Virus record (IMG/VR): IMGVR_UViG_3300025070_000019
Coordinates: 1 to 64,000 of that record
Length of the DNA: 64,000 nucleotides
Origin: a virus
Direction: 5' to 3' (one strand)
Shown here in pieces: positions 23,702-51,894 of this stretch. Under the pieces are notes generated by a model. The model was not told where the DNA came from. It saw nothing but the letters and a program-made list of their open reading frames with translations, and did no database searches. The position numbers and the translations under genes were made by a program. The stretch's first letter is position 1. Each line of letters begins with the position of its first letter.

Positions 23702-23702
23702 T

Positions 23703-25664: not shown

Positions 25665-25698
25665 GACTTGTGATTTAAAATGAAGTATATTTATGATT

Positions 25699-25728
25699 AA
25701 AGATCCCCCTAAAAGGGATCTTTTTTTA
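25699..25728 (+). terminator. intrinsic terminator
   Basis: AAGATCCC-cctaaaa-GGGATCTT followed by T tract. Confidence 0.75.
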
Positions 25729-25750
25729 TATTTAGTCATAGGAAATTGTT

Positions 25751-31883: not shown

Positions 31884-32129
31884 ATGATTATAAAAAGAAA
31901 ATGTATTATTACAGGTAAATCCAATCAACTTGATTTACCTGTAACTCAAACTCAATTAGATCGCTGGAAAGCAGGTTTACCAATTCAAGATGCAATGCCT
32001 CATTTAAATAATGATGAAAGAGAATTCATTATTACAGGCATTACGAAAGAAACTTGGGATCAGTATCTAAAAACAGAAAAAACAAAAGAAATTGTTAATG
32101 GGATTTTAAATCCAGAAAGAAATGATTGA
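31884..32129 (+). CDS. phage hypothetical protein
   Basis: AAGGA RBS; IQDAMPHL...EREFIITGI. Confidence 0.65.
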   Translation: MIIKRKCIITGKSNQLDLPVTQTQLDRWKAGLPIQDAMPHLNNDEREFIITGITKETWDQYLKTEKTKEIVNGILNPERND

Positions 32130-33143: not shown

Positions 33144-33410
33144 ATGAAAGCTTTAATAGTTGATACACCATATACAGAATCATTTAAAGGCAAATTCGAT
33201 AAAATACAAGATAAAGTTTATGATATTTTGCATTTGCTACCATATAATCAAGATGATGTAGAATTTTTATCTTATTTGGCTGATAACTTCTTAGAAGGTT
33301 TAGAAGATTATTATAAAGAGAATGTTTTTAAGTGTAAATGTTGTGAAAGGTTAGCTGTTAAAGGTAACATATGTTCTGACAACTATGAAAAGGATTGTAA
33401 AAGACAATGA
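33144..33410 (+). CDS. hypothetical protein with C-terminal Cys cluster
   Basis: AGGAG RBS. Confidence 0.55.
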   Translation: MKALIVDTPYTESFKGKFDKIQDKVYDILHLLPYNQDDVEFLSYLADNFLEGLEDYYKENVFKCKCCERLAVKGNICSDNYEKDCKRQ

Positions 33411-34675: not shown

Positions 34676-35117
34676 GAAAGAAAAAATAATGCAAATTAAA
34701 ACTCCTTTTATTGTATACTACGAAGATTACAAAAAAGATAACAATATTTTAAATGAAAATATTTATAAAAATTTGAATAAAAGTAATTTAAATTCTTATA
34801 AAAGAATTATAAATAGAATCAACAGAAACCTTCACGAAGGTAACGAGCATGTAGCTCATTATACCAAAAAAGCTATCATTTCATTTGAAAAGAGCGAAAT
34901 ATGTTTTACTAATTTAAGATCTTTTTTAACTTTAAAAGATCAATTTGTAAATGAACAGTCATTCAATTTAGCAAAGATTAAAACTGCTAGTGAATTTGAA
35001 GATTGGGTTAGAAATCAAAATGAAGACAAACCTTTAGAATTACTTAATTTAAAAATTCAAGAAATTCAACATAATTTAAATGGTTTAAAAGAGTTATTAA
35101 AAAGTTTTGATTTATGA
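34659..35117 (+). CDS. hypothetical protein (probable start 34689)
   Basis: ORF between dnaE fragments. Confidence 0.55.
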   Translation: MVYHFKKEKIMQIKTPFIVYYEDYKKDNNILNENIYKNLNKSNLNSYKRIINRINRNLHEGNEHVAHYTKKAIISFEKSEICFTNLRSFLTLKDQFVNEQSFNLAKIKTASEFEDWVRNQNEDKPLELLNLKIQEIQHNLNGLKELLKSFDL

Positions 35118-35359
35118 AAATTAAAGAAGTACCTATTTTATGGAGGATGAATCGTAAAGCTAAAACTGCTACAAACAGTTTTAGTACAGATGGAAGTAAC
35201 ATTTATAGTTATCGTCTTAAAATTGGTTATACAAATGAATATGGTCAAAAAGTTTTACTTAGATATACAAAAGAATATAACAATTTCAAAAGTCACACTA
35301 CTAGTAGACACGTCAATCTAGCAGCTTATCATGCTGACATATTTGAAATACCTAGCTAA
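35114..35359 (+). CDS. hypothetical phage protein
   Basis: ATGA-coupled ORF. Confidence 0.6.
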   Translation: MKIKEVPILWRMNRKAKTATNSFSTDGSNIYSYRLKIGYTNEYGQKVLLRYTKEYNNFKSHTTSRHVNLAAYHADIFEIPS

Positions 35360-35498
35360 CATCCACCTTTACATCTACGTACGGGTTGTAACATCCAACG
35401 TTTAAACATAGAAAGACCCTTTATGCAAAAAATTTGTATTGAACTTTTTTTAATTCCAGCAATAATTGCTTTTTTTAAAAAAATGAAAAAGAAAAAAA

Positions 35499-37091
35499 AT
35501 GTATGACAGTAGAAAAAATAATTTAAAACTCTTAGATGAGAATATAATAGATGAAAGATACGATCAAGTCGATCCCGATTATTTAGCTTTTGAAGTTAAA
35601 ATGGTATCAGATGAAGATTTAGAAAGAATTTTCTGGTTGTTAACTGAAAAAGTTAAATTTGAATCGAATCCATACAATTCTATCTTGCTTTATATTACAG
35701 GGATTACAGATGACTTTAATTTTGATAAAGCTAGATCTGAAATGGTTGGTGGTGCTCCACCTGACATTGACATTGACCATGATGCTTTAGACAGAGAAGA
35801 AGCGATTCAATGGTGTGTTGATTACTGGGGTAGAGAAAATGTAGCTAATATTATTACTCATGGTACTTTTAAACCTAAAAGTTTAGCGCGGTCTTTTTAT
35901 CGTATTACTGAAGGCAATAATGAAGACCTTAACGAGTTACTTAAAAAGATACCTATGCCTGTATATGGTAAAGAAGCTACATTAGATGAAATACTTGAAG
36001 TTGCACCTGAAATAAAAGAAGAAATACGATATGCAAACTTTTTGGAGTTTGCAGATCGTATTGAAGGTATGGTTTCTACATTTGGTATTCATGCTGCTGG
36101 TATTATTATATCTGACACTGAAGTTAATGATACTGTTCCTGTATGGAAAAATAGCAAGGCAGATCGTATTACTCAATATGATAAAGATGAATGTGAAGAA
36201 CTTGGTTTGATTAAGTTTGACTTCTTAGGTATAGACACATTGTCTATTATTAAAGAATGCCGTCATTTAATTAAACATCATACTTTATTAGATATAGAAC
36301 CATATGCAATTGAAGATGGAGATGAAAGAACTTATCAGACACTTTGTAGTGGCTTGCTTACTGGCGTCTTTCAAATGGAAACATCTGGTACTGCTAAAAA
36401 ACTAATACTTAGTATTCGTCCTAAATCAATAGAAGATTTATCTGCTATATCAGCTTTGAATCGTCCAGGTCCGTTACAAGCAGGACTAGATAAACAATAT
36501 ATAGAGAACAAATATAAGGGCTCTCCTCCAAAAGATTTACCTAGTAATGTTGCTGAAGTATTACAAGCTAGTTACTGGACTTTAGTTTATCAAGAACAAG
36601 TAATGGATATATGTTCTAAAATTGCAGGATTCACTCCTAAACAAGCTGATGATATTCGTCGTGCTATGGGTAAAAAGAAACATGAAGTATTAGAAAAATA
36701 TAAAGAACAATTCATTGAAGGTTGTCAATCAATTGGTGGTCTTGCCAAAGATTATTCAAGTAATCTTTGGGATGATCTTGTCGGTTTTGCAGACTATTGT
36801 TTATTAGGTAATACTAAGATTCAAACTGTAGATGGTACTTTCACAATAAAAGACATAGTTGATAACTTTATTTCAGCAGAAGTATTTAGTTATAGTTTTA
36901 AAGATAAAAATTTTATTAAACAAAAAGTATCTCAATGGTATAATCGTGGTGTCAAGCCAGTATATCGTTACACGTTAGAAGATGGTACTTATGTCGATTG
37001 TACAGAAGATCATAAGTTTTTAACAATAAATGATGATATGCTTGAAATTGATGCTATATTTGATAAAAATATAAAATTAAAGACTAAATAA
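35499..37091 (+). CDS. dnaE: DNA polymerase III alpha, fragment 2 (palm/thumb/fingers) fused to N-terminal split-intein half
   Basis: PDIDID, GIHAAG, KFDFLG, GVFQME, ALNRPGP, YQEQVM, IRRAMGKK, FADY|CL. Confidence 0.95.
   Translation: MYDSRKNNLKLLDENIIDERYDQVDPDYLAFEVKMVSDEDLERIFWLLTEKVKFESNPYNSILLYITGITDDFNFDKARSEMVGGAPPDIDIDHDALDREEAIQWCVDYWGRENVANIITHGTFKPKSLARSFYRITEGNNEDLNELLKKIPMPVYGKEATLDEILEVAPEIKEEIRYANFLEFADRIEGMVSTFGIHAAGIIISDTEVNDTVPVWKNSKADRITQYDKDECEELGLIKFDFLGIDTLSIIKECRHLIKHHTLLDIEPYAIEDGDERTYQTLCSGLLTGVFQMETSGTAKKLILSIRPKSIEDLSAISALNRPGPLQAGLDKQYIENKYKGSPPKDLPSNVAEVLQASYWTLVYQEQVMDICSKIAGFTPKQADDIRRAMGKKKHEVLEKYKEQFIEGCQSIGGLAKDYSSNLWDDLVGFADYCLLGNTKIQTVDGTFTIKDIVDNFISAEVFSYSFKDKNFIKQKVSQWYNRGVKPVYRYTLEDGTYVDCTEDHKFLTINDDMLEIDAIFDKNIKLKTK
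36798..37088 (+). mobile_element. split intein N-half (IntN, 97 aa)
   Basis: CLLGNTKIQT block A; QWYNRG..PVYRYTLEDG...CTEDHKFLT block B; ends at stop codon. Confidence 0.93.
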
Positions 37092-37102
37092 AAAGGTATC
37101 TT

Positions 37103-37474
37103 ATGGCTACTCATGCAGAATCTAAAAATCAAGGTACTATAATTGTAGATAGTACACTTAATATAGAAAATATCAACAATAGTGATCAAGGTTTATCAGT
37201 AGGACAAGTAATGACTATTCTACCTAAATCTCATGACCTTTCATCTCAGTGTGATGGTAGCTTAAAAGATTTTGTTTTAAGTCCAGCAGTAGTTCAAAAT
37301 ACTTTAAACTTTTTTAGTTTATATTTAGACGGTGTATTGCTTACAAGATCAGCAGATTTAACAATTTCAGACTATGTAGTATCTTCTCATAGTCAAATTA
37401 ATTTACATCAATCAATACCTGCACCTCCTGCAGGTTCTAGTTTAATTGCTATTTATATAGGAGTAGTAGGATAA
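37103..37474 (+). CDS. putative virion structural protein
   Basis: HDLSSQ.DG...F.L, LYLDGV; paralogue of 44822 ORF. Confidence 0.6.
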   Translation: MATHAESKNQGTIIVDSTLNIENINNSDQGLSVGQVMTILPKSHDLSSQCDGSLKDFVLSPAVVQNTLNFFSLYLDGVLLTRSADLTISDYVVSSHSQINLHQSIPAPPAGSSLIAIYIGVVG

Positions 37475-40400
37475 TGGCTATTGATAGAAAATCAAGATTA
37501 AAACCAGGATCAATACATCCTACATTAGTAGATGAAACTAGTGGTTTACAAGTAAATCCTGATACAGGAATTTTAAATGCTACAAGTCTAAAAAATGAAA
37601 TCAATACCTTTGATCAAAGATTTAACAACTTGCCTTGGAAACAAGTTATTAATGTTCAAGAAGTATTTGACGATGTAGATATCACAGATGAAGCTACTCA
37701 AGTTTTAGAATTAAATCACATCCTTGTACCTGGCAATACATATTACAGTCGTACAGATAAAGCTTTTTATATATACATAAAAGATGTAACTAATATAGAT
37801 TCTGCATGGCAACCTACAAACTGGATTGCAGCTAATAGAATAGAAGGTTTTTTAAAAATACCTTTAACTTTAGATTATGCTGATAAAGAATATGTAAATA
37901 CTCAAGTTTCACAGCTTGTAGGTGTAGATCAGCAAACTTTACAAAGCATACAAGACTTATTAGATTACATTGCTAACAATCCAACAGCAAATATTATTGG
38001 CAGAATAACAGCTTTAGAAACTAACAAAGCCAATCGAAGTGAAATTTACACTCAAGATATTATTGATAATAAGCTTCAAACTATTAATACAAATATTGAT
38101 TTACTATCTGATTCTATAATGACCCCTGCAAATTATTCTTGCGGCAATGACCCTCTAGACTCTGATAATAATATAAATGATTTATATAATAATACTAAAG
38201 TAAGAATAGTAGACGACTTTACCTTGAATTATTTAATTAAACAAGGCGTAGAAATTTCAGAAACCCCACTAATAATAGATCAAGCACCAGTTCTTTTTAC
38301 AGGTTTGCAACCTCAAAAGAACTACATGTTTAGCAGGCTTAATAAAGTTGAAATAAATCGCAATTTATCTTTACAACAAGGCAATTCAGATCAAATAACA
38401 TTCAATAATATTTGGTTTGCTTATGGATTTGAAGTTAAATCTACTTCTGCTTATGTAAAATTAACTTTTAATAATTGTTTGTTTGAAAATACATCCCTTG
38501 CAGGAGGGAGTGTATTTTCTTCTTTAGTTGAAGATGCAAATGTAAATCGTATTGATTTAGAATTTTACAATTGTACATTTAACTTAACTAACAATTTATT
38601 AATAAAACGAGCAAATGTATCATTTGATAATTGTTTCTTTTTAGATTCTGCTAATAAGGATCAAATAAACTTATATAATAATTGCGACGCAAAAGTTATT
38701 AATTCTCATTCAGAATCTTGTATCAACATATACGACAATTCTTTACTTGAGTTACAAGGATGTAGTTTTAAGAAAACTACAGGATCTGAGTCTTACCTTG
38801 ATATAAGAAATTTAGATGTCAACTTAAGTCCTTCATTAGTTAAATTAAAAGATATTACCTTTGACACTTATGAAACATTTACTAGTGATTATATATCTGG
38901 TACAGGTGAGTTATATTTAGATTATAATATAATAGAGCAAAATTTAAGATCTGCTTTAGTAGATGGAACTAAGATTATAGTACCAAGAATATCCTCTATG
39001 TTAAATGCAGGCTCTGGTATTGAGTTAAATAAGTTTTTTCAACCTTATGGTAGTGAAAACTTTTTCTATAATGATGAGTTCGCAAGAGATGCTATTGGAG
39101 CTATGATTACCTCAAGTACTCATAGCTCAGGTATTGTTTGGACTTACAATGATAACAATAATAAACTTAGTCTTTCATTAGAAACATTATCATCTATAGA
39201 TTTAGCAGATACCAATAACATTGCTTATAAAGATGAAGAAAATGTATTTTCAGGAACTTTAAATGCTTTTCAAAACATAAGTACAAATATAATAACAAAT
39301 TCTGCTACTTTATCTACAGGCAGTGTAAAATCAACAACAGGTAATATAGACACATTAGAAAGCGCAAACCTTACTACTACTACACAGTTGTCTACTGACA
39401 ACTCTACAAAAGCAGCTACAACTGCTTTTGTACAAGAACGTTTTAGTAACTTAGTTGCACAATTCAATAGCACTGAACTTACTGAACTTTCAGATGTAAC
39501 AATCACAAGTGCAACTTTATCTAGCAGTCAAGTTTTAAAATATGATTCTAATACTACTCAATGGATTAATGCTCAATTAGATTTTGATGACTTACTTGAT
39601 ACAGATAAAGTTGTTACAGAAAATGATTCTGTATTTAAATTAGGACAAATAGATCCTCCTACAGATCAAAGAGATAATGGTGCTATACCAGAAACAACTA
39701 GATATTTATCTACTAATCAAGTTTTAGCTTGGAATGGTATTGACAGAATTGATGAAGGTACAGGAGATGAAGATCCTAATGCTAAATATATACCTGTACT
39801 TATAAATGAAATAATTTTATATGCACAAGAAGCTAACAGTCAGCAAGGTGAAACAGTAGCAGGAGCTGGTATAATTACTATTGCTTCTACAGAAGGAGTA
39901 AGAGATGGCACAGATCTTAATAAAGCTGTTATACCTCCTTACCTATATAAACATTATTTAAGAAGAGATGCATCTAATATTGATCCATCTGAAACTCAAA
40001 GTGCAAGAGATAACCTTGATATAGACTCTGAATTTGTAAAGATTGATTTAAGCAATGCCACAACTGCTGCTAATTATAGAAGTCATATAGGCTTACCTGC
40101 TCTTGAAGCAGGTAAATATCTAGTTGGAACTGCTAGTAATTGGACAAATACAGATAGAACATTAGGTTATTTACAACCAGAAGGTTTAGATTTTACTTCC
40201 TCACCTAGTAGTAAATGGGATCTTTCACCTTCTTATTTTTATAATGTTAAAACACCTGCTAATGAAACTAAATATGTTGTATTACCTGATATAAATTCTA
40301 TGAATCCTCAAGGTGGTACAATCAGAATTAAAAAAGAAAATGGTTCTACACATGCAACTGCTGGAACAGTTTCTATACGTGCTAATGACTCAGATGATGT

Positions 40401-41499
40401 TATTATAACTGCTGATAATGAAGTCATTACTTCTTCAGGAAGTAATGAAGCACAAATAGACATACTTGTTGCAGGTCATACTGTTGATTTATATGTAGGT
40501 TATAGCATTGCTTTGAATAAAAGAGTTTGGTATGCATTCGGTTATTACTATAATAGTGCAGATCAAACACAACCTGTACCAGTTATTGATTTAACTCAAG
40601 AAGCTACAGAAGATGCTATTATATCATTATTCAATCATAATGATCATTCACCAGCACTATCTGTTAATTATGATGACCCGAATCATCAAGTAGAACTTAA
40701 TTTAGCTTTTGCTTCTCAAGCTGAAGTTACAGCAGGCACTATAGATAATTTACCTATTGCTCCTAATACCTTAAAATCAATCACAAATGATATAGATACT
40801 TCTATTACAGATTTAGAAACTTTAGCTAGCAATACATATTTAGCTAAAGATAGTAATTTAGATGATTTACAAGATGTACCTACAGCAAGAACTAATTTAG
40901 GTTTAGGTACTGCAGCTACATATAATGTTGGTATAAATTCTGGTGAGTTATTATTAAATGGAACATTACTACCTAATAAATTTACTTATTTTAACGGTAC
41001 TAATTTAGTTACAAATGATTTACCTATAGCTACTTCAACAATAAATGGTTTAATTCAAACAACAACTATCACAGATGTAATTACTACAAATGCTTTATCT
41101 GATACTAAAGCATTGACCCCTTATGATTTAAATGAAGCCATAACTACTAATGTAGGTACTTCTACTATACGTGATAACATTTTAAGTTTAACCAATACTT
41201 TAAAATATGAATATACCAACAATGCTACTGTAAATGCTACAGTTACTAAGCATTATTCATTAAGAGCAGACCCTAATAGTATCGTTGTAAATTTACCAGA
41301 TATTACAACTGTTGCTACTGGTGCAAGAATTAGTATTAAATTAAAAAGATTAGTTAATAACAATACTGTTACAATAAACCCATATAGTAATCAAACAATA
41401 GATGACGACACATCTAGCTTTGTACTAGATGTTGTCGGTCAAGCAATTACTTTAGTAGCAGGTAATGATAATAATGAAACTGATTGGGAGATTGTATAA
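37474..41499 (+). CDS. large tail-fibre/virion protein
   Basis: Beta-helix-like segment, DNSTKAATTAFV, ARTNLGLGTAA fibre motifs. Confidence 0.75.
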   Translation: MAIDRKSRLKPGSIHPTLVDETSGLQVNPDTGILNATSLKNEINTFDQRFNNLPWKQVINVQEVFDDVDITDEATQVLELNHILVPGNTYYSRTDKAFYIYIKDVTNIDSAWQPTNWIAANRIEGFLKIPLTLDYADKEYVNTQVSQLVGVDQQTLQSIQDLLDYIANNPTANIIGRITALETNKANRSEIYTQDIIDNKLQTINTNIDLLSDSIMTPANYSCGNDPLDSDNNINDLYNNTKVRIVDDFTLNYLIKQGVEISETPLIIDQAPVLFTGLQPQKNYMFSRLNKVEINRNLSLQQGNSDQITFNNIWFAYGFEVKSTSAYVKLTFNNCLFENTSLAGGSVFSSLVEDANVNRIDLEFYNCTFNLTNNLLIKRANVSFDNCFFLDSANKDQINLYNNCDAKVINSHSESCINIYDNSLLELQGCSFKKTTGSESYLDIRNLDVNLSPSLVKLKDITFDTYETFTSDYISGTGELYLDYNIIEQNLRSALVDGTKIIVPRISSMLNAGSGIELNKFFQPYGSENFFYNDEFARDAIGAMITSSTHSSGIVWTYNDNNNKLSLSLETLSSIDLADTNNIAYKDEENVFSGTLNAFQNISTNIITNSATLSTGSVKSTTGNIDTLESANLTTTTQLSTDNSTKAATTAFVQERFSNLVAQFNSTELTELSDVTITSATLSSSQVLKYDSNTTQWINAQLDFDDLLDTDKVVTENDSVFKLGQIDPPTDQRDNGAIPETTRYLSTNQVLAWNGIDRIDEGTGDEDPNAKYIPVLINEIILYAQEANSQQGETVAGAGIITIASTEGVRDGTDLNKAVIPPYLYKHYLRRDASNIDPSETQSARDNLDIDSEFVKIDLSNATTAANYRSHIGLPALEAGKYLVGTASNWTNTDRTLGYLQPEGLDFTSSPSSKWDLSPSYFYNVKTPANETKYVVLPDINSMNPQGGTIRIKKENGSTHATAGTVSIRANDSDDVIITADNEVITSSGSNEAQIDILVAGHTVDLYVGYSIALNKRVWYAFGYYYNSADQTQPVPVIDLTQEATEDAIISLFNHNDHSPALSVNYDDPNHQVELNLAFASQAEVTAGTIDNLPIAPNTLKSITNDIDTSITDLETLASNTYLAKDSNLDDLQDVPTARTNLGLGTAATYNVGINSGELLLNGTLLPNKFTYFNGTNLVTNDLPIATSTINGLIQTTTITDVITTNALSDTKALTPYDLNEAITTNVGTSTIRDNILSLTNTLKYEYTNNATVNATVTKHYSLRADPNSIVVNLPDITTVATGARISIKLKRLVNNNTVTINPYSNQTIDDDTSSFVLDVVGQAITLVAGNDNNETDWEIV

Positions 41500-42008
41500 T
41501 GAGTCATAATTTAACAAAAGTTTTAAATCAACCTGGTTTAAAAGAAATTGATAATTCGAATCAATTTATAAATGTAACATTAGATACAGATAATGTAGAT
41601 GAAGGTGTTACCAATCTTTATTATACAGATGCTCGTGGATTAGCTACTATGCGAGCTAATCCTATTATACAAGATCGGCATTTTTATACTGTTGATGAAC
41701 TTGCAGTTAAACAAGGCGATTTATATTGGCGAATCATATCGCCAATAAAACTTTTGCAAGCTAAAGCTTATGTTGGTACACCATCAGTAGGTGCAGATAT
41801 TTCTTTACATGTAATAAAGAATGATTCTACAGCACCTGAAGATTTACTATATGATTTAGACATTACATCTACAACCAATGAAGTTTATATTGATGATGAA
41901 TATACTTTAGCTGTAGGTGATTATTTACGTGTCGATGTAGTACAAATTGGTACTACTACAAAAGGTTCAGACCTTATTGTATCTTTTAAATATCATTCAA
42001 TACTTTAA
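41499..42008 (+). CDS. putative virion/fibre-associated protein
   Basis: TDNVDEGVTNLYYTDAR motif; L.VDVVQIG...GSDL; TAATG coupling. Confidence 0.65.
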   Translation: MSHNLTKVLNQPGLKEIDNSNQFINVTLDTDNVDEGVTNLYYTDARGLATMRANPIIQDRHFYTVDELAVKQGDLYWRIISPIKLLQAKAYVGTPSVGADISLHVIKNDSTAPEDLLYDLDITSTTNEVYIDDEYTLAVGDYLRVDVVQIGTTTKGSDLIVSFKYHSIL

Positions 42009-42024
42009 TTAAGGATTATATATT

Positions 42025-44241
42025 ATGGCTGTTGTTAAAGAAATTACAGGAAAACTTTTAATTGCTGATCGTGATAATGGAACAACAAGTAGTGGTCAAA
42101 TTGCACTACCTGAAGTTTCAATTATAAATGACAACAATACTGTACTTATAGAAAATGAATCTCAACAAACTCTTTACTTGAATAACGAAGCTCATGATTC
42201 TGTTACATTAACACCATATTTTGATAAAAAAGCAACAGGTATAAAAAGAAATGCTAAAAATGTTTTTAATCAATTTTCTAATAACATGCTTTTAACTTCA
42301 AAACCTCAATGTAGAACTAATTGGAATGATGATACATATACTGCTAGCACATATTGGGACAATTGTAGTTTAGATGCTATAAAATATAGCAATGAAACAT
42401 TTCATAAAAACTTAACATCAGAAGCCTATGATTTTAATCCTAATTTTTATAAGTTTACAGCTAACAATCAAGAATATACTCTTTTGTTATCTTATGCATT
42501 TGAAGACATTGGAAATGTAGCTCAAGCAATTGAAAACACAACTCATTTTACTATAATAAAAGGTGATGACTATTCTAATCCAATTGCTACTTTAGAGTTA
42601 GACTATAGTAATAACGGTTTATATCCAGACAATATTCATTATAGCACAAAATTACCTTTATATTTTGAAATATTAACTATAGATACAACAAATCTTTCTA
42701 GTTGTTTTGCAGTTTTACATTTTACTGCTTATCGTGAGTATCAATATGAATATATTAAAGGTCAAGGTTTAATTACACTTAATTTTGATTTAAATACTTT
42801 TGCATGGAAATCTTCACCTATAAATTTAATATTTCCCAATCCAGTTTTCCCTGCAAATCAAGATTCGATTTTAGCTGATCTTGATTTGCAGACTGCACCA
42901 CCAAGTAAAACTAATAAATTATCACATAACTTATTTTATTGTGGAAAAGATACATCTTCTAATCATATTTTTATGGATATAAATTTAGACCATGATTATG
43001 CTTCTGATGGTGGAGCAATAGCTGATGGAGAAATTTCATTTACATTATATGAATTAGATGAAGTAAATATGATTTTAGATGCAACAACTAGATTTGTTGC
43101 ATCAGATAATAATATTGCAAACGTAAAAACAATAACAGATAATTATGTAAATGGAGATTTAATAAATATATATTGTTCTAAGTTTCAAGCTTTAGATAGT
43201 AACAAATCTAATACAATGTATTCTTACATTGCAGCTTTTGATAATTCTGGCAATTTCAAACCAATAAGAATAATATGGAATAAAAATATAGTTATTAGCA
43301 ATTACGCAGGCACTGGTACTGCACCATTATATGTAGATGAATGTACAGTTACTTTTCCTAATTCTAATCCATCTACTAATTATATTAAGAATTGGGCTTC
43401 TAACTATGCAGATGCTGCAGATACTTTAGATTCTGTAGCATCTAGCAATTATAGAAGTTTACCAAACATACCTTTATTTATGAAAAGTTTATCATTATTG
43501 AGTCCAACAGATAATACTATAAACTTTACTTACCTTTTTAAGAAAAATGAATTAGCTAATCATTTTCATGCTGCTGACGCTCTGCATTCAGATTTAACTT
43601 CTTTTTCAATTGATGTATCAGATTTTGCAACTAATTCTGATTTAAATTTAACTTATCAGTCTTCATATACTTTAAAAGCTTTAGATTTAATCTACAATTC
43701 TGCAGTTAATAAAATTAAAGCAATTACTCCTACAGGTATAAAAATGCTTTCATATTCAGCAAATGCATGGGTTTTATCTTCAGAACATACAGGCATTTAC
43801 AATGTATTAGCAGAGGATAGTTATGGGCGCAATTGGGCTTTAAATATGCCTGTAGCAGATTTAAGCTCTTTAAGTGATTCTGCTTTGCAGTACATTTATT
43901 TAAATGTAAAAAATGTAGATATGAAGTTAGAATTATTATCAGATACGCTTCCACACGTAACATCTTTATCATTAGAAACACCAAATCAGACCTATGCTGG
44001 GTCTGATTTAAACAATCGTTTAATTGTAAATGCATATGATGAAACAAATGTTAGAATTGCAAAAGATGTACGTTTAACTATTGAAGGCAACAACTGTACA
44101 TTTGATGCAGATTTTGCACAAGGTATTACTGCAGGTGCTACTACAGCAGTAGTTACTACATCTACTAGTGCAGATACATTTGTTGATATAACAATTACTA
44201 ATTCTGGCTTAATTAATGTATCAGCATCATTTGATCTATAA
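42025..44241 (+). CDS. putative virion structural protein
   Basis: Long N/S/T-rich beta protein in structural cassette. Confidence 0.6.
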   Translation: MAVVKEITGKLLIADRDNGTTSSGQIALPEVSIINDNNTVLIENESQQTLYLNNEAHDSVTLTPYFDKKATGIKRNAKNVFNQFSNNMLLTSKPQCRTNWNDDTYTASTYWDNCSLDAIKYSNETFHKNLTSEAYDFNPNFYKFTANNQEYTLLLSYAFEDIGNVAQAIENTTHFTIIKGDDYSNPIATLELDYSNNGLYPDNIHYSTKLPLYFEILTIDTTNLSSCFAVLHFTAYREYQYEYIKGQGLITLNFDLNTFAWKSSPINLIFPNPVFPANQDSILADLDLQTAPPSKTNKLSHNLFYCGKDTSSNHIFMDINLDHDYASDGGAIADGEISFTLYELDEVNMILDATTRFVASDNNIANVKTITDNYVNGDLINIYCSKFQALDSNKSNTMYSYIAAFDNSGNFKPIRIIWNKNIVISNYAGTGTAPLYVDECTVTFPNSNPSTNYIKNWASNYADAADTLDSVASSNYRSLPNIPLFMKSLSLLSPTDNTINFTYLFKKNELANHFHAADALHSDLTSFSIDVSDFATNSDLNLTYQSSYTLKALDLIYNSAVNKIKAITPTGIKMLSYSANAWVLSSEHTGIYNVLAEDSYGRNWALNMPVADLSSLSDSALQYIYLNVKNVDMKLELLSDTLPHVTSLSLETPNQTYAGSDLNNRLIVNAYDETNVRIAKDVRLTIEGNNCTFDADFAQGITAGATTAVVTTSTSADTFVDITITNSGLINVSASFDL

Positions 44242-44252
44242 GGATAAAGCTC

Positions 44253-44831
44253 ATGGCATTACATGGATTTGTAGATAGCGTAAAAGAAACATTATCTTTT
44301 CAAGTAAAAGATAATTATTTTGTAGTTAATAATCAAACTAGAGAGAAAAAACTTTTATCATTTGATTTAAAAGTATTTCTGTTTGATGAATTTTTATCTT
44401 CTCAAAACCACACTAATGTTAATTTTAATTCTTATAATTCATTTGAACTATTTGAGAATGTAGAAGAAGAATCTTACTCTAACCAACCTACATATAATGG
44501 TTCTACTGGAGTAGTATCTAAGCTTATGCATTATGTAAATAAAGCATATTCTTATAGAAATAATACTTTAAGTTATACTACATCTATAGTATCTACAAAT
44601 ATAGATTTTCTTAAATCAACACAACCAACTTACACTTATGATGAAAATGACATAAATTATTTTAGTAAAAACTTAATAACTTATATTTCAGGTGCTGATG
44701 TTGATATAAATATAGAGTATAACAAATCACAAGATTACGTTAACCAATACTTCGAAGAAGAACCTTCATCTAATGGAGGAGGTTCTGAAGAACCTCCAGA
44801 AGTTACTGGTTTAAAAGAATTTTGGGCATAG
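44253..44831 (+). CDS. hypothetical (structural cassette)
   Basis: AAGGA RBS. Confidence 0.6.
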   Translation: MALHGFVDSVKETLSFQVKDNYFVVNNQTREKKLLSFDLKVFLFDEFLSSQNHTNVNFNSYNSFELFENVEEESYSNQPTYNGSTGVVSKLMHYVNKAYSYRNNTLSYTTSIVSTNIDFLKSTQPTYTYDENDINYFSKNLITYISGADVDINIEYNKSQDYVNQYFEEEPSSNGGGSEEPPEVTGLKEFWA

Positions 44832-45145
44832 GAGATATTATGACTGTTGTTACTATATATAATTCTACAGTTACTACTACAAATTTAACTAACATTACAA
44901 ATAGAGCGCGTTTAGTTACGCATGACTTAAGTAGTCAACTAACTAATAACTCGTTGATATTTATTTTATCACCACCAGCAGTGATTGAAAGTGTTCAAGT
45001 AGTTGTAGATGGTCTTACTTTAAAGCCATCTACAGCTAATGTCGTTGGTGATTACAGTTTGAATAATGCGACTCAACTAGAGCTTCTATTTAATTCACCC
45101 TTATCTACTAGCTCTACTATATTAGCAATTTACGAAGAGGCATAA
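44822..45145 (+). CDS. putative virion protein (probable start 44840)
   Basis: HDLSSQ...FILSP, V.VDGL; paralogue of 37103 ORF. Confidence 0.6.
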   Translation: MGIGDIMTVVTIYNSTVTTTNLTNITNRARLVTHDLSSQLTNNSLIFILSPPAVIESVQVVVDGLTLKPSTANVVGDYSLNNATQLELLFNSPLSTSSTILAIYEEA

Positions 45146-45147
45146 AA

Positions 45148-45483
45148 ATGGCACGTATCACTAAAATAAAAAGAGATAGTTTAGATTTACCTGAAATATT
45201 TGCATCTGGTTATCAAACAGATGCAAATGGCAAAGTTATAACTGGTTACAAATGGAAAACACATGTTCCATCTTTAAGTCAAGGTATTCATACACAGTTC
45301 CAACTACCAGACCCAGTATTAGTTGTTAATAACGTTGAATTAATATTTTTATTTGTAAATGGTGTTCAAATAACTGCAGATAAAATTTCGTTGCAAAGCC
45401 AAAATAGCTTAGTAATATACAGCAATACTGAATTCAGTATTGATCAAGATGATGTAGTTGAAATAAAATACGTAGCAGCTTAA
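45148..45483 (+). CDS. putative virion protein
   Basis: LFVNGVQ, D.VEIKY. Confidence 0.6.
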   Translation: MARITKIKRDSLDLPEIFASGYQTDANGKVITGYKWKTHVPSLSQGIHTQFQLPDPVLVVNNVELIFLFVNGVQITADKISLQSQNSLVIYSNTEFSIDQDDVVEIKYVAA

Positions 45484-45493
45484 GAGGTTTACA

Positions 45494-47281
45494 ATGAAAA
45501 TTAAATCTAAACAACTAGAAGAAAATTTAGGTTCTCAATCTTCTCCATTTACATCTGTGCATTCTTCAGATTTTACTGGTAGCTTAACAGGACCTATTCG
45601 GTTTAAAGCTAAAAACGAAACAGGCGTTGCAGTAGCTAAGGGTGTTCCAGTTTATATAAATGGAGTTAGTGGTGATGTCCCAACCATTGCTCTTGCAGAT
45701 TCCGATACAATAAATATGCCTTGTGTTGGTTTAACAGAATCTGCAGCTAATAATAATGCTGAAGTTTATATTGTAAGTTTCGGTAATCTTACAGGTTTAA
45801 ATACAGCCGCTTTAGGTACAGATATTGTTGGAGATACTGTATATATAAGTACAACAGCAGGTGCTTTAACTTTAACGCCTCCAGCAGGCAGTTCAAGTAA
45901 GTTACAAAATATAGGTCAAGTAATAAGAGAGCATGCAACAGATGGCATTATTAAAGTTGGTGGTGCAGGCCGTACAGCTGCAACACCAAACTTAGATCAA
46001 GGTAAAATATTTATTGGCAATGCTTCTAATCAATCATCTTCAAGTGTTTATACATTACCCATTGCAGATGGTAGTAGTGGGCAAGTACTTACTACTGATG
46101 GTTCTGGAGCAGTTACATTTCAAGATGCTAGTGGAGGTGGTGGTAGTTCTGCTGCTGATGATATTACTGCTGGTGATGCAGCAGTTAATATCACTACAAC
46201 ATCTGGTAATATTACTATTGATGCTCAAGCAAATGATTCTGATATCATATTTAAAGGTACAGATAATAATTCTGATATAACTATGTTAACTTTAGATGGT
46301 TCAGACTCTGGTACAGCTATATTTAATAATAATTTAAAACTTAAAAGTGATTACAGCGTTTTATATTTTGGTTCAGATGACGATGTACTTGTACAACATG
46401 ACCCAGATGATGGTTTAAAGTTTCAAGTAAGTTATAGCAATGAAAGTATTCGAGACCCAAGGTTTACATTTCAAACAACTTCTGGAAACAATTCTGTAGG
46501 CCCTTATCTAACTTTTATGCATAGTGGTAGTGACTCTAATAATGATACTATTGGTAATCTTGAATTTAGAGCTGCTACTACTACTAGTAATATACTTTCT
46601 GGAACAACAGATTACGCTTTAATCAAAGCTAAAATTTTAGATAGAACTAATGCAACTAGATCTGCAGAAGTTTCTATTGCTACTCAAAGTAATGGAACCT
46701 CTACTACTGCATTACAAGTTTACGGTAATTCATCTAATACAAATGTAATAACCAAAATAAATAAAATAGTTAATGTAGCTGATCATGATGGTACTACAGG
46801 TTTACAATTAGCAGGTACTTTAGTTACTACTACTGCTGCAGAACTTAACATTATGGATGGTGATACTTCAGCAACTTCTACTACTTTAGTAGATGCTGAC
46901 CGTATTATAATTAATGATGCTGGAACAATGAAGCAAGTTGCATTAACAGATGTTATGACATATGTTAATGCAAATGTATCTGGTGGTGGTGGATTTACAT
47001 ACACAGCAATCACATCAGCATCTTCACCCGTTGCAGGAGCAGCCTCAACTCATTATTCAGCAGATACATCAGGCGGAGCGATCACAATCAATCTTCCTGC
47101 TTTGAGTGGTGTGACGGCAGGCACTGAGATTCGAGTAAAACTTAAAACAGCAGGAAATACATTGACTCTTGATGGTAATCTATCAGAGACAATCGACGGC
47201 TCAACCACATACACTCTCACAGTACAAAACCAAGCTGTCACTCTTGTGAGTGATGGATCATCAAATTGGGAGGTCATCTAA
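45494..47281 (+). CDS. tail-fibre-like protein
   Basis: DGSSGQVLTTDGSG, TAAELNIMDG motifs; C-terminal domain shared with 37474 ORF. Confidence 0.72.
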   Translation: MKIKSKQLEENLGSQSSPFTSVHSSDFTGSLTGPIRFKAKNETGVAVAKGVPVYINGVSGDVPTIALADSDTINMPCVGLTESAANNNAEVYIVSFGNLTGLNTAALGTDIVGDTVYISTTAGALTLTPPAGSSSKLQNIGQVIREHATDGIIKVGGAGRTAATPNLDQGKIFIGNASNQSSSSVYTLPIADGSSGQVLTTDGSGAVTFQDASGGGGSSAADDITAGDAAVNITTTSGNITIDAQANDSDIIFKGTDNNSDITMLTLDGSDSGTAIFNNNLKLKSDYSVLYFGSDDDVLVQHDPDDGLKFQVSYSNESIRDPRFTFQTTSGNNSVGPYLTFMHSGSDSNNDTIGNLEFRAATTTSNILSGTTDYALIKAKILDRTNATRSAEVSIATQSNGTSTTALQVYGNSSNTNVITKINKIVNVADHDGTTGLQLAGTLVTTTAAELNIMDGDTSATSTTLVDADRIIINDAGTMKQVALTDVMTYVNANVSGGGGFTYTAITSASSPVAGAASTHYSADTSGGAITINLPALSGVTAGTEIRVKLKTAGNTLTLDGNLSETIDGSTTYTLTVQNQAVTLVSDGSSNWEVI

Positions 47282-47916
47282 TGAGTCATAATAAAATAAC
47301 AGTAGCAAGTCAAAGCCCTGATTCAAATGGTGATGTTTCGATTGATGTTGCCAATATGTCAGATGTAAATATTAGTACACCATCCGACAATCAAGTATTG
47401 CAATATTCGACAGCATCAAGCCAATGGCAAAATCAAACTCTTTCAGTCGGGTCAGGCTTGCTTGTTCTAGGTCAAGGGGATTCGGACGCATACAGTAATA
47501 GCGGTGCTAGTTCAATGAGTGGAGACGTTTATTTATATGCTCCCTCAGCTTCTATTGTAAATACTCTCGGTGCAACAATCACTAAATATCTTGCCACAGA
47601 TTGGGTCACATCCATCACATTGCCTCCTGGTAATTATCAAGCTATGATCACTTATAGAGTTGAGTTTTCAGCAAGTGGATATTTCAATTACGGATTAACA
47701 GACACAAGCGGAACAACAGAGTATACATCAAGAGCATATATCGGGGAAGATAGGACAAACATTGATAATGCGGCTAGTACTGCTCTGGGCTATTTTGAAT
47801 TAGCCTCATCAACTACAGTTATTTTGCATAATAACGCTTCCTCTGGCGTTGCTTCAGTAGCAAGCCAAGGAAACACCCCTGCCGAATTTAGTACTTTAAT
47901 GATTCGGAGCGTGTAA
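47281..47916 (+). CDS. fibre-associated protein
   Basis: SDVNI..P.DNQVLQY....QWQN; TAATG coupling. Confidence 0.65.
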   Translation: MSHNKITVASQSPDSNGDVSIDVANMSDVNISTPSDNQVLQYSTASSQWQNQTLSVGSGLLVLGQGDSDAYSNSGASSMSGDVYLYAPSASIVNTLGATITKYLATDWVTSITLPPGNYQAMITYRVEFSASGYFNYGLTDTSGTTEYTSRAYIGEDRTNIDNAASTALGYFELASSTTVILHNNASSGVASVASQGNTPAEFSTLMIRSV

Positions 47917-47917
47917 A

Positions 47918-48523
47918 ATGTCTCATTTATTAAACTCTGTAAATAATGTTAAAAGCTCAAGTGATGGAAATATAAATCTAGGTTTATCTAGTTTAATGAG
48001 TTCACCCTCTGATACTGATGTAGTGGGTATTGATGGCGGTGGAAGTTCTAAGAAATTGGCAATAGGAACTAATGTTGGGGATCTTGCTATGTCTTATGTA
48101 GTCCAGTCGGCAGGCTGGGCAGGTTCAGGTACGATCACAGAGGGATATAATACTTATTTAAGAGGGAGTAGTTGTACAGTAGAGGAAAACACATCAATTA
48201 TTACAAGACATGCCGCAGGAGGGGCTTCTTGGTTGCAGGGCTGGACTTTAGTAGCGGGCAATTATTTAATGTTAGCAAGCTGGGGGTTTAGTTTGTCAAG
48301 CGGTGGGAATTGTAATGTACAGTTTTATAATGCGACCACTGCGGCATATGTGGGGCCTAAAATGCACTTTATAACAGGCAATTTTAGCAATCGATTGATT
48401 TATCATGCTAACATCTCTAGTAGTACTCGATTCGAGTTGAGAGCGCGTGATGTTGTTAATAATGTAAATTTATTTGATGCGTCAAGTATGTTCGCATGTA
48501 CAATACAAATATTTAAAGTTTAA
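47918..48523 (+). CDS. fibre-associated protein
   Basis: MSH.. start as in 47281 ORF; L.AGNY beta-sandwich pattern. Confidence 0.6.
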   Translation: MSHLLNSVNNVKSSSDGNINLGLSSLMSSPSDTDVVGIDGGGSSKKLAIGTNVGDLAMSYVVQSAGWAGSGTITEGYNTYLRGSSCTVEENTSIITRHAAGGASWLQGWTLVAGNYLMLASWGFSLSSGGNCNVQFYNATTAAYVGPKMHFITGNFSNRLIYHANISSSTRFELRARDVVNNVNLFDASSMFACTIQIFKV

Positions 48524-48540
48524 AAAATTAGGAGTTTATT

Positions 48541-48903
48541 ATGTATGTCACTGTAAAATGTAATCAATCTTTAACTGTTGGTCAAGTCGTATCTTATAGT
48601 TTATCGAGTAATCAATGGGAGGTTGCAAACTCAATCTCTGAAGAGATCTCAGTAGTCAAAGATATGCCCTACAACAACGGAACAGATGAGAATCCTGAAT
48701 ATGTTTGTAAAATTCTTGTCTCTGGTCCTGTTCGTTGTTTCGCTTCAAGAGATATACCAGTGCAAGGAGGTCAATTGAATATTGAGAACGGAAAAGTATT
48801 TGTTGATAATTCGCTCACAGAATCAACAGGATTCATCGTGCCCAAAGACATCAATGAAGCTGATCGAGTTGTTGACTCTTCTGTTGTTATTGTTTTGAGG
48901 TAA
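48541..48903 (+). CDS. putative structural protein
   Basis: AGGAG RBS. Confidence 0.55.
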   Translation: MYVTVKCNQSLTVGQVVSYSLSSNQWEVANSISEEISVVKDMPYNNGTDENPEYVCKILVSGPVRCFASRDIPVQGGQLNIENGKVFVDNSLTESTGFIVPKDINEADRVVDSSVVIVLR

Positions 48904-49157
48904 TCATGACAATTTATGTAAATGTGATATTTCAAATTCTTGGCCTGTTTAGCACTGTAATCGATGTGATTTAGTATGTATCAAACATGATCAACAGTTT
49001 ACGGAATGGATCTTCTGCTACAGATAAATTTTATAATATTAATTTATCAACATACTCAATTTAATATATTATAAATAGTAAATTGAAATTATCTTTTACA
49101 ATAAATTATTATATTTTTGGTTAACCAAAAAACAAAACCCTAATTAGGAGACACCTC

Positions 49158-50537
49158 ATGGCGTTAATTAAAGGTAAACAATTAAGTAATAATACTCTTG
49201 CACTTACAAAAGTTGCACTTCAATCAGAAGCTGAAATTCTTGTTGCAGATTCTAATGGTCAATTACAAGCAGTAAGTCTTGGAACTGATGCTACTATTAC
49301 AGCAGCAGGTGCTTTAACAATTGCTAATGATGCAATTAACAGCGCAAAAATTGCTAACGGTTCTGTTACATTTGCTAAACTCAATAGCGGCTCTTATTCA
49401 ACAGATTTAAGTTCATCTGCTACTGCGTCTGAACTTGCTCGTGCTGATGCAGCTAAAGCTTATGCTGATTCAATTTTAACTTCAGCTCAAACTTATGCTG
49501 ATAATGTTGCTAATGGTCTTGATATCAAAGCTTCTGTTAGATTAGCTTCTACTGCAGCTTTAACGTTAGCAACAGACGTTGAAAATGGAGACAGCTTAGA
49601 TGGTATAGCATTAGTTACAGGTGATCGTATTCTTTTAAAAGATCAAGCTGATGCAACTGAAAATGGCATCTATGTAGTTGCTGCATCAGGTGCTCCTTCA
49701 AGAGCAGCTGATGCAGATCAAGGTGATCTAACAGGTGGTGCATTCTTTTTTGTAGAAGAAGGTACTGCTAATGCTGACAATGGTTTTGTTTGTACAACTA
49801 ATGGTACTCCAACATTAGGTACAGATAATATTGTTTTTGCTCAATTTAGTGGTGCAGGTAGTGTTAGTGCAGGTGCAGCTTTAACTAAAACTGGTAATCA
49901 ACTAGATGTAAATGTAGATGATTCAACTATTGAAATAAACAATGATACTTTACGGATAAAAGATGCAGGTATTACATCTCTTAAATTAGGTAATCTTTCT
50001 ATTACACCTGCTAAGATTTCTCCTACTGTTGCCGGTGATGGTATTGCAGGTGGTAATGGTGTTGCACTTTCAGTAAGTTTAAATGAGTTAACTGCTGCAG
50101 TTTTGGATGTATCTGCTGATAGTATTGCATTCATTGATGCTACTGACAGCTCAACAAAGAAAGAAAGTGTTGCAGATTTTGCTACTGCTCTAGCAGGTTC
50201 TGGTCTTACAGCTTCTTCAGGTGCTTTAGCTGCTGCCCGTCTTTCATCTAATGATCAATTTGAAACAGCTAGTGCTACTAGTTCGAATGGAGATAGTGCT
50301 GGTGTAACTATTGCAGCAACTCCTGAAGGTATGGTTCAAATTTTTGTAAATGGATTACAACAAGAATTAGGTCAAGGCGTAAAAACTAAAGATTGTTACT
50401 TCAGTGCTGATGGTGGAAGTACAGCAAGAGCAATTACTGCAATTGCTAGTGGTGACACATTGTACTGGAATGGAAGTGTTGCAGGCTATCAACTTGATAC
50501 TAATGATAAAATTAGCATGGTATATGAAACTGCATAA
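49158..50537 (+). CDS. Ala/Gly/Thr-rich virion fibre/decoration protein
   Basis: DIKASVR.A.T, GDRILLKDQ...ENGIY, FVEEGT.NAD; strong AGGAG RBS. Confidence 0.75.
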   Translation: MALIKGKQLSNNTLALTKVALQSEAEILVADSNGQLQAVSLGTDATITAAGALTIANDAINSAKIANGSVTFAKLNSGSYSTDLSSSATASELARADAAKAYADSILTSAQTYADNVANGLDIKASVRLASTAALTLATDVENGDSLDGIALVTGDRILLKDQADATENGIYVVAASGAPSRAADADQGDLTGGAFFFVEEGTANADNGFVCTTNGTPTLGTDNIVFAQFSGAGSVSAGAALTKTGNQLDVNVDDSTIEINNDTLRIKDAGITSLKLGNLSITPAKISPTVAGDGIAGGNGVALSVSLNELTAAVLDVSADSIAFIDATDSSTKKESVADFATALAGSGLTASSGALAAARLSSNDQFETASATSSNGDSAGVTIAATPEGMVQIFVNGLQQELGQGVKTKDCYFSADGGSTARAITAIASGDTLYWNGSVAGYQLDTNDKISMVYETA

Positions 50538-50597
50538 TCATTTATTTCATAAATGATTAAAAAACACTTGGCTGTTTTTAAATAAACTGTATTTAAT

Positions 50598-50627
50598 AAA
50601 GCGTCTTAATTGACGCTTTTGTTTTTT
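50598..50627 (+). terminator. intrinsic terminator after structural cassette
   Basis: AAAGCGTC-ttaatt-GACGCTTT followed by T-rich run. Confidence 0.7.
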
Positions 50628-50640
50628 GAGGTATGTAAAA

Positions 50641-50754
50641 ATGAAAATTGTAAAAAAAGAATTTCTTGGTAACCAAGAAGTTTACGATATCGGTGTGTCT
50701 TCTAACGAAGATGCACATAACTTTTTGCTAGATAATAACTTGATAGCAAGTAAT
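50641..50754 (+). mobile_element. split intein C-half (IntC, 38 aa)
   Basis: MKIVKKEFLGNQEVYDIGV...HNFLLDNNLIASN followed by +1 Cys. Confidence 0.93.
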
Positions 50755-51894
50755 TGTTTTAACAAAGCGCATTCAGTTAGCTATTCTATGTTAACTTATA
50801 TTAGTGCTTATCTAAAAACTCACTACCCTGTTTACTTTTTTACTGCTTTGATGTCTACTCGATCTAAAACTTTACAACCTAAATCATGGGCTGTTAAAGC
50901 TCCTGAATATGTATTGGAAGCAAAAAAATTTAATATAGATATAAATACTCCTAGTGTTAATAAATCAGGTTATGAATTTACTATCTTTAATAATGAAGTA
51001 TACTTTGGGTTAAATGCTATAAGAGACGTAGGTAAAACAGCAGCTAAAAGTATTATCAAAGCGAGAAAGAATGTCCCATTTAAAGACATTCTTGATTTTG
51101 TCGAACGTGTTAACTTGCAAAAAGTAAATACTAAAACTTTTGAAGCATTAGCCTATGCAGGTGCTTTTGATAGAATGGGTTACTCTCGTAAAGAGCTTAT
51201 AGAAAAAACTTCTGAAATATATTCCTATATAAGAGATTTAGAAGATTATCGACAACGTAAAATAGATGCAGCTGCTAGACGAGAAAAAAATGCTCGCAAT
51301 ACACCTTTAATAGAAAGACGTAACTTTTTACGTAAAGAAATAAAAAAAATAAACAATCGTATCAATAAGGATAAAGCTAAAGAAGAAGACTTTGAGAATT
51401 TGACTGTGTATGAAAATGAACTAGAACCTTTAGAAGACTTAGGACTTAAGAAACTAGTTGATCTTAAAGAAAAAGAAAGACCTGTTTTTCCTGAGTTAAA
51501 ACGCAATAGTTCTGTTGAGTTAGATCTTCAGGATATAACTCAACAAGCACACTACATTGGCTGTTACTTAGGTGGACACCCTTTGCAATTTGTACAAGTA
51601 AGTGGTGTTTCTCAAATTATTTCATTAGATATCGGTGAAATTGATACAATAGCTGGTGTAATATTAGGCATTCGTGAGATTACTACTCGTAAAGGCAAAA
51701 AAATGGCTGTTATAGATGTAAACGACTCAACGAATACTACTGAAATAGTTTGTTTTCCTTCAACATGGTCTAAGATAAATAATATGAATTTAAAAACTGG
51801 TGATATAGTTAAAGCTAAAATCAAAGTAGAAGAGACAGATCCAGACTATAAAATGATATTATTCAGCTTAACTACTGTTGATCAAAATCAATAA
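50641..51894 (+). CDS. dnaE: split-intein C-half fused to DNA polymerase III alpha fragment 3 (HhH + OB)
   Basis: ATG at 50641 after GAGGT; ASN|CFNKAHS.SY, YLKTHYP, PSVNKS, FGLNAIRDVG, AGAFD, YL.GHPL, T.KGKKMA. Confidence 0.94.
   Translation: MKIVKKEFLGNQEVYDIGVSSNEDAHNFLLDNNLIASNCFNKAHSVSYSMLTYISAYLKTHYPVYFFTALMSTRSKTLQPKSWAVKAPEYVLEAKKFNIDINTPSVNKSGYEFTIFNNEVYFGLNAIRDVGKTAAKSIIKARKNVPFKDILDFVERVNLQKVNTKTFEALAYAGAFDRMGYSRKELIEKTSEIYSYIRDLEDYRQRKIDAAARREKNARNTPLIERRNFLRKEIKKINNRINKDKAKEEDFENLTVYENELEPLEDLGLKKLVDLKEKERPVFPELKRNSSVELDLQDITQQAHYIGCYLGGHPLQFVQVSGVSQIISLDIGEIDTIAGVILGIREITTRKGKKMAVIDVNDSTNTTEIVCFPSTWSKINNMNLKTGDIVKAKIKVEETDPDYKMILFSLTTVDQNQ

Follow-up and report, generated by a model that had tools for sequence, protein, structure and literature searches.

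The DnaE split intein of cyanobacteria is the founding natural split intein and, as Npu and Cfa, the main protein-ligation tool. The naturally split state of this element (Ssp from PCC6803, Npu) was reportedly described by Wu et al. in 1998 and Caspi et al. in 2003. Here we analyze 64,000 nucleotides (nt) of an uncultured marine tailed phage (IMG/VR virus record IMGVR_UViG_3300025070_000019, positions 1 to 64,000; this whole stretch is the window below), whose only DnaE-type polymerase is encoded, according to Pfam, in three pieces and not two: dnaE-A, dnaE-B and dnaE-C. The product of dnaE-B ends in the N-terminal half of an intein (IntN) and that of dnaE-C begins with the C-terminal half (IntC), both of the cyanobacterial DnaE type, and an island of 12 open reading frames (ORFs) stands between them.

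According to Novikova et al. 2016 (PMC4760082), inteins at the corresponding insertion point (site a) are confined to cyanobacteria, are split in every case and lack an endonuclease. Dassa et al. 2009 (PMC2677866) reported "fractured genes" in environmental phage-like DNA, the source of gp41-1, NrdJ-1 and IMPDH-1, including three dnaE loci with integration points different from the cyanobacterial one. In those loci the halves are separated by just one gene, for a free-standing homing endonuclease, and it was unclear how an essential replicase could survive breakage. Also cited there are the Aeh1-type gp43 and NrdA, polymerase and ribonucleotide reductase (RNR) genes that are split without an intein and carry mobile inserts. 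Neither phage inteins located at site a of DnaE nor the arrangement found in the window turned up in the literature searched, in keeping with the original prediction, which had called the pair new.

The window pair shares with the cyanobacterial DnaE intein the FA-x-Y|C ... N|CFNK-x-HS site, a split into ~100 + 36 amino acids (aa), the placement of the halves on separate genes and the catalytic residues, the non-His penultimate residue included. It departs from it in having a phage host, an extein that is not specifically cyanobacterial and an IntN only ~40% identical to that of Npu; furthermore, the window halves lie on one strand at one locus and bracket a cargo island, whereas the cyanobacterial halves occupy distant chromosomal loci. 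Like the fractured genes of Dassa et al., a replication gene is present as two adjacent half-genes on the same strand with foreign DNA between them, but the site matches that of cyanobacteria, an endonuclease is absent and the insert in the phage family of the window is fibre-like and 2-13.5 kb long. The Aeh1-type genes resemble not the B/C break but the A/B break (34675/35499), where small ORFs stand between the genes of two polypeptides and a splicing element is lacking. Protein trans-splicing is a known mechanism; what is new is the phage host, the cargo island and the coexistence of empty and endonuclease-bearing alleles.

Translation of the dnaE-B 3' end (36600-37100) gives ...LVGFADY|CLLGNTKIQT...CTEDHKFLT...KTK followed by a stop, with Cys1 of IntN as residue 434 of the 530-aa ORF, and translation of 50641-51894 gives MKIVKKEFLGNQEVYDIGV...HNF...IASN|CFNKAHS.... 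Both halves are exact to the base where they had been predicted, and the untranslated distance from IntN to IntC is 13,549 nt. The sequence features of a class-1 split intein are all found: Cys1, T-x-x-H, a terminal Asn and a +1 Cys, on separate genes with their own stop and start. The start of dnaE-C, ATG at 50641, is preceded by GAGG (50629), and the protein begins MKI... in all relatives. Against PDB, IntN matches the Npu DnaE IntN (4lx3/4qfq) and further Npu/Ssp structures with E 2e-16, and IntC matches Npu/Ssp with E 1.5e-7 to 7e-6. Among NCBIfam models, IntN is recognized by TIGR01445 intein_Nterm (2.5e-12) and aligns with the cyanobacterial DnaE-N model NF007079 through position 870 of 876, while the top match of piece C is the cyanobacterial DnaE-C model NF005616, aligned from residue 1. 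Block B of IntN, C-T-E-D-H-K-F, pairs with A-T-K-D-H-K-F in Npu, and the insertion point is that of cyanobacteria, 10 of whose dnaE-n loci read ...FAEY|CLSY.... The cyanobacterial insertion site, split and N|CFN junction claimed beforehand are all recovered in these comparisons; judged by its sequence, the element is truly a split intein and belongs to the cyanobacterial DnaE allele (PolIII-alpha insertion point a).

Conservation of the pair was followed in relatives labelled G001-G023, among which both intein halves were located in ~20 viral contigs, and in a piece C protein search that returned 235 proteins at E<=1e-10. Among phage relatives, 16/16 retain Cys1 and the T/S-x-x-H motif. The best 120 of the 235 piece C proteins, which were the ones examined, are ~420 aa long and come from marine metagenomes on contigs of up to ~180 kb; an IntC of 35-46 aa ending in N|CFNKAHS opens 119/120 of these clusters. 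Within the family the exteins are 60-77% identical and the inteins 38-53%, both standing at ~40% relative to Nostoc. That the catalytic residues are kept while the inteins diverge more than the exteins points to selection for splicing. Over 100 diverged natural DnaE-type IntN/IntC pairs are available as candidates for orthogonal ligation tools. Cross-splicing with a host DnaE intein, which the original prediction had raised, would be no more than a possibility: the window IntN is only ~40% identical to Npu, and five complete relatives lack psbA.

Contiguous alleles, which the original prediction had proposed to look for in related phages, do exist. G004 encodes B and C as a single 807-aa ORF, ...LVGFADYCFNKAHS..., whose GFADY|CFNKAHS junction makes it a precise empty allele, and intein-less, island-less fused B/C genes occur in three relatives altogether (G004; G017, 808 aa; G019). 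The flanks are collinear on both sides, with RNR, RecA, dnaE-A, a small ORF and dnaE-B upstream and dnaE-C, a metallophosphoesterase, a Cas4-like nuclease, a dehydrogenase and a primase-helicase downstream. Gap contents differ among the ~20 collinear contigs and gap size ranges from 0.84 to 13.5 kb (Table 1). The split-intein-plus-cargo layout is long established in a large phage family and did not arise from one landing event. The earlier idea of a tolerated landing site stands insofar as the gap holds cargo of varied kind and size; what is seen is a family-wide anchored module and no one-off landing.

Two further irregularities were seen among these alleles. In G015 (56105-57727) and G016 (33722-35344), weak IntN-like matches inside a 1393-aa ORF hint at an additional intein in some other gene of these relatives. 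In G023 (153032-154939), IntC and the remainder of dnaE-C share one 714-aa frame with ~670 nt of extra coding sequence between them, which could mark another insertion, for instance a second intein.

The island starts 11 nt after dnaE-B and comprises 12 ORFs of 107-1341 aa, all on the + strand (37103-50537). Its first gene, which we call the anchor gene, directly follows IntN in at least nine genomes (the window, G001, G002, G005-G008, G010 and G018), with weaker relatives in G013-G015. The AF2 model of its product has a predicted local distance difference test (pLDDT) score of ~90 over residues 40-120. Foldseek searches of PDB with this model return N-terminal domains of phage tail proteins, fibres and tailspikes as top matches, individually weak (E 8e-3 to 0.1), and those of BFVD return 31 matches at E<=1e-3, T7-like tail fibres among them. 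The predicted fold is consistent with an N-terminal virion-attachment domain of T7 gp17-type fibres. As with T7 gp17 and branched tailspike adaptors (for instance CBA120 TSP4), where the likeness lies in the predicted fold of the anchor, the three island copies precede large fibre-like genes; unlike those adaptors, the anchor is a free-standing small protein. The two anchor paralogues inside the island are matched by the anchor-family profile A3 at 44855-45142 (1.4e-9) and 45232-45480 (1.2e-3).

Behind the anchor gene, the ORFs of 1341, 174 and 738 aa are 27-38% identical to full-length orthologues in both G005 and G008. For the 1341-aa protein, the orthologue from G005 matches ~10 PHROG tail-fibre/tail families (best 4.6e-13); the 174-aa ORF has a weak minor-tail match in PHROGs. 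In the atlas, the neighbours of the 1341-aa protein belong to tailspike/fibre clusters, a lead only, and the search with the 738-aa protein gave no usable match. For the seven ORFs that follow (44253-48903), PHROGs and Pfam scans returned no family beyond the anchor paralogues. The C-terminus of the 595-aa protein among them resembles that of the 1341-aa protein (9e-9). At 47-49 kb, over the 3' end of the 595-aa gene and three small ORFs, G+C rises to 0.38-0.40 against ~0.30 around, which suggests a recent import into the island. The last ORF, of 459 aa, has the clearest assignments, with PHROGs matches to phrog_30390 (1e-34), head decoration (1.4e-27), virion structural protein (7e-20) and tail fiber (7e-18), and orthologues stand at the equivalent position before IntC in G005 (484 aa) and G008 (516 aa). 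Island proteins are rich in Ser, Thr, Asn and Gly. Cargo in the relatives includes a collagen-like tail fibre in G001 (4.7e-131), a ConA-like lectin in G012, a CBM_4_9/tail protein in G023 and a decoration/fibre-like protein in G010. Taken together, the island appears to be a tail-fibre/host-recognition module, its products presumably located on the virion. The "twelve structural genes and a terminator" of the original prediction are present as 12 ORFs and a terminator-like hairpin, with a virion role supported for only some of the ORFs.

Table 1. Features of the split dnaE locus in the window and distances between intein halves in the window and its relatives.
Feature	Position	Strand	Description
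dnaE-A	33407-34675	+	PHP domain and first palm part; separate polypeptide without intein
ORFs of 152 aa and 81 aa	34659-35359	+	between dnaE-A and dnaE-B
dnaE-B	35499-37091	+	530 aa; N-extein and IntN
dnaE-B N-extein	35499-36797	+	433 aa; PPDIDID active site, remaining palm, fingers; end ...LVGFADY
IntN	36798-37088	+	97 aa; Cys1 in CLLGNTKIQ; block B T-x-x-H in CTEDHKF; stop 37089-37091
Anchor gene	37103-37474	+	123 aa, MATHA...; first island gene
ORFs of 1341, 174, 738 aa	37474-44241	+	large, Thr/Asn/Ser-rich, fibre-like
ORFs of 192, 107, 111, 595, 216, 201, 120 aa	44253-48903	+	
Anchor-domain paralogue	44822-45145	+	
Anchor-domain paralogue	45148-45483	+	
Last island ORF	49158-50537	+	459 aa, Ala/Ser/Thr/Gly-rich
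Structured spacer	50538-50640	+	~104-108 nt; abuts dnaE-C ribosome-binding site (GAGG 50629)
dnaE-C	50641-51894	+	IntC, HhH and OB-fold domains
IntC	50641-50754	+	38 aa, MKIVKKEFLGNQEVYDIGV...HNF...IASN; terminal Asn, then +1 Cys
dnaE-C extein	50755-51894	+	379 aa, CFNKAHS...; Pfam HHH_6 1.2e-28, tRNA_anti-codon OB 1e-8
IntN-IntC distance, window			13.5 kb
IntN-IntC distance, G005			12.2 kb
IntN-IntC distance, G008			11.5 kb
IntN-IntC distance, G010			9.4 kb
IntN-IntC distance, G001, G002, G006, G007, G018, G020			7.7-8.4 kb
IntN-IntC distance, G014			5.2 kb
IntN-IntC distance, G011			4.0 kb
IntN-IntC distance, G023			3.5 kb
IntN-IntC distance, G015, G016			3.4 kb
IntN-IntC distance, G012			2.8 kb
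IntN-IntC distance, G013			2.2 kb
IntN-IntC distance, G021, G022			0.84 kb

Searches for nuclease families among the island ORFs returned no match in PHROGs (12/12 ORFs), Pfam (10/12) or PADLOC (9/12). A homing endonuclease hidden in the island was accordingly rejected as a candidate, and the earlier statement that no endonuclease lies between the window halves agrees with these scans, with an endonuclease form existing in the distant G021. Defence or counter-defence cargo was also considered and gave no PADLOC match over the same 9/12 ORFs.

The reading that we regard as highly probable is that the products of dnaE-B and dnaE-C are joined by a trans-splicing split intein whose gap houses a diversifying tail-fibre module, and that this applies family-wide. 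Piece A would stay a separate chain; after translation the two intein halves would associate, and Cys1, the block-B Thr and His, the terminal Asn and the +1 Cys would carry out protein trans-splicing. The predicted product measures 433 + 379 = 812 aa and reads ...GFADY-CFNKAHS..., with the junction of the intein-less one-piece gene and a matching length, and the predicted spliced junction peptide is ...DDLVGFADYCFNK, in tryptic form DYSSNLWDDLVGFADYCFNK. Since the halves would be joined as proteins, the intervening DNA would be free of constraint, and the gap may have become the home of a rapidly diversifying fibre module, in which a small conserved adaptor gene immediately behind IntN precedes genes for variable large fibre, lectin and carbohydrate-binding proteins. 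With such joining, the phage could maintain a host-recognition module that is hypervariable within an essential gene. Several points weigh against this reading. Splicing by the window pair is predicted from sequence, the window junctions are backed by syntenic relatives (G005 and G008 for both) and not by reads, and the hairpin directly upstream of dnaE-C leaves the transcription of that gene unexplained. Likewise, homology or fold supports a virion role in only ~5/12 window ORFs, and the remaining ~7/12 are assigned that role by composition, position and orthology to relatives.

Of the ways in which the trans-splicing part of this reading could fail, one is that the intein halves no longer splice and persist as a high-affinity dimerisation pair or in decay, the polymerase being a non-covalent A+B+C complex. 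Pieces A and B work without an intein in every relative, which indicates that DnaE tolerates non-covalent assembly, and the window IntC has a 3-residue insertion relative to Npu; nevertheless, all catalytic positions are kept in >100 diverged clusters despite the intein evolving faster than the extein, and a mere dimeriser would have no need for N|C, so we hold loss of splicing to be improbable. A misassembly, placing an unrelated 13.5-kb segment between the halves of a normal gene, would fit a single metagenomic contig, and a search for the exact junction patterns found none in metagenome or viral contigs, possibly because near-identical records were masked. Yet each gene edge bears a complete intein half with its stop or start, which a chimeric join cannot create, the N-side junction (IntN stop, anchor gene) is found in at least 7 other contigs from other samples, and the C-side junction (459-aa orthologue, IntC) recurs in G005 and G008. 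With the layout recurring in contigs from different samples, misassembly is for practical purposes ruled out and, in our view, hardly credible.

The layout could instead be regulatory, with the position of dnaE-C behind fibre genes and a terminator tying completion of the polymerase to a transcription phase. The spacer before dnaE-C is strongly structured: its RNA fold has -23.8 kcal/mol (z -4.26, 0/200 shuffles as good), and a terminator scan places a terminator-like hairpin (50598-50619) and a T-run directly before the GAGG/ATG of dnaE-C, at its ribosome-binding site. In G002 and G006-G008, just 3-10 nt separate dnaE-C from the last island ORF, so that the gene is probably co-transcribed with the island, an arrangement that speaks for a regulatory coupling and at the same time shows that the spacer and its hairpin are not conserved. 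Intein-less relatives manage with a one-piece gene, and a replicase would be expected early and fibres late; a promoter scan (68 sites vs 78 expected) is uninformative in DNA this AT-rich. We consider the regulatory explanation rather unlikely. As to the cargo itself, the island genes might be non-virion genes with secreted, surface-modifying or counter-defence products, since 7/12 window ORFs are without family or fold assignment and numerous small ORFs make up most of the islands in G010 and G018. This minor possibility is opposed by the tail-fibre, decoration, lectin and carbohydrate-binding matches in the window and its relatives, by the gp17-N-like fold of the anchor, by the empty PADLOC result and by the Ser/Thr/Gly/Asn-rich composition typical of fibres.

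Two other phage lineages bear on the relation between the window intein family and the cyanobacterial one. The inteins of G021 and G023 are 58-63% identical to Npu and their exteins 43-44%; in the IntN tree both group with cyanobacterial inteins (97/94 support) and the window clade falls outside. The intein versus extein comparison advised by the original prediction hence returns a discordance in these two genomes, which points to horizontal intein movement between phage and cyanobacterial dnaE. In G021, a 204-kb phage, IntN (63% identical to Npu, E 4e-36) is in frame with a helix-turn-helix (HTH) and a LAGLIDADG endonuclease domain (phrog_4645 6e-39, PF14528), and IntC lies in an overlapping, different frame (L061:3014-4150 and 4122-5360). 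A second contig, G022, is identical in sequence to the G021 locus. The locus may represent a bifunctional intein that was split or frameshifted recently. This endonuclease-bearing form is not reported for site a, where Novikova et al. (PMC4760082), in contrast to what is seen in G021, describe inteins without an endonuclease. A search for IntN plus endonuclease in other phage contigs gave generic LAGLIDADG genes only.

From these alleles we infer the order of events to be an endonuclease-bearing intein, its splitting, and then loss of the endonuclease and gain of cargo. A more tentative view, which we think doubtful, is that the gap is a selected "safe harbour" for host-range genes and that phages are where the site-a intein became split before being exchanged with cyanobacteria. 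Under the safe-harbour view, the conserved dnaE and intein flanks would act as fixed anchors for fibre-cassette swaps among related phages; a phage origin of the split, if true, would answer how the cyanobacterial dnaE became broken. The presence of empty, endonuclease-bearing and split forms in one large phage family makes the history of the DnaE split testable.

The island is also distinct from the main tail/baseplate module, which lies beyond 64 kb on the opposite strand and includes a baseplate wedge gene and very large ORFs. With replication genes on both flanks and the main tail module elsewhere, the insert is an island inside the replication module. In G000, a 2081-aa ORF (90395-96640, minus strand) with an endolysin-like segment (phrog_20474 3.4e-19) adjoins the baseplate wedge gene (phrog_6) and is probably a tape-measure protein or virion-associated lysin of the main tail module. 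Island-gene homologues were also seen in the intein-less relatives, a few kb upstream of dnaE: G004 22650-25832, G017 30379-30630 and 37475-37885, and G019 ~97.3-98.5 kb. They correspond to the 136-aa and 331-aa proteins of G011 and to the N-terminal part of the 595-aa window protein, and their location indicates that the cargo module is mobile within the replication region.

As for the polymerase itself, dnaE-A matches Pfam PHP (1.2e-48) and positions 2-102 of DNA_pol3_alpha, covering residues 6-463 of Taq DnaE; dnaE-B continues with positions 100-260 of DNA_pol3_alpha and with DNA_pol3_finger (3.4e-45), covering Taq residues 460-812. The A/B break falls just upstream of the PDxD active-site motif and carries no intein. 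It is present in all relatives, including intein-less ones such as G004, and is older than the intein split. dnaE-A ends ...FERFLNEGRG followed by a conserved 21-aa tail, and dnaE-B opens with an 85-aa extension holding a degenerate copy of the preceding helices (NSILLYITGIT...). Both tails are conserved at the protein level in all relatives, from which it follows that these are two real polypeptides. An RNA intron at the break was considered and dropped, with no Rfam match in 34500-35800. Neither of the two small ORFs at the break (152 and 81 aa) matches a Pfam, NCBIfam or PADLOC family; homologues of the 81-aa ORF stand at the equivalent place in G001 and G005. A wholesale acquisition of dnaE from a cyanobacterium was likewise rejected, as piece A favours generic over cyanobacterial DnaE models and the extein is ~41% identical to Nostoc.

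A further interruption of dnaE-B, of 1.1 kb, was seen in G005 at ...SAIN|RPGP... and contains a group I intron (91005-91327, RF00028, 66.8 bits, E 2.4e-16). Counting this intron, dnaE in the phage family of the window is interrupted in three ways, by an intron, by an intein and by a fission without intein.

The source genome has G+C ~30% and its record is ~59% complete; complete relatives measure 158-162 kb, and the phage of the window roughly 160 kb. Neither blastn nor tblastn found a near relative in the phage collection. A cyanophage host assignment was rejected, psbA not being found in five complete relatives and no close cultured phage appearing in the blastn and tblastn searches. In G002 (39220-39849) and G005 (86114-86743) the RecA match is limited to residues 1-210, in a 209-aa ORF with other ORFs after it, so that RecA may be interrupted too in these genomes; the window RecA is intact (336 aa, 32126-33136). 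The window also encodes one tRNA-Met (CAT) gene at 6774-6849.

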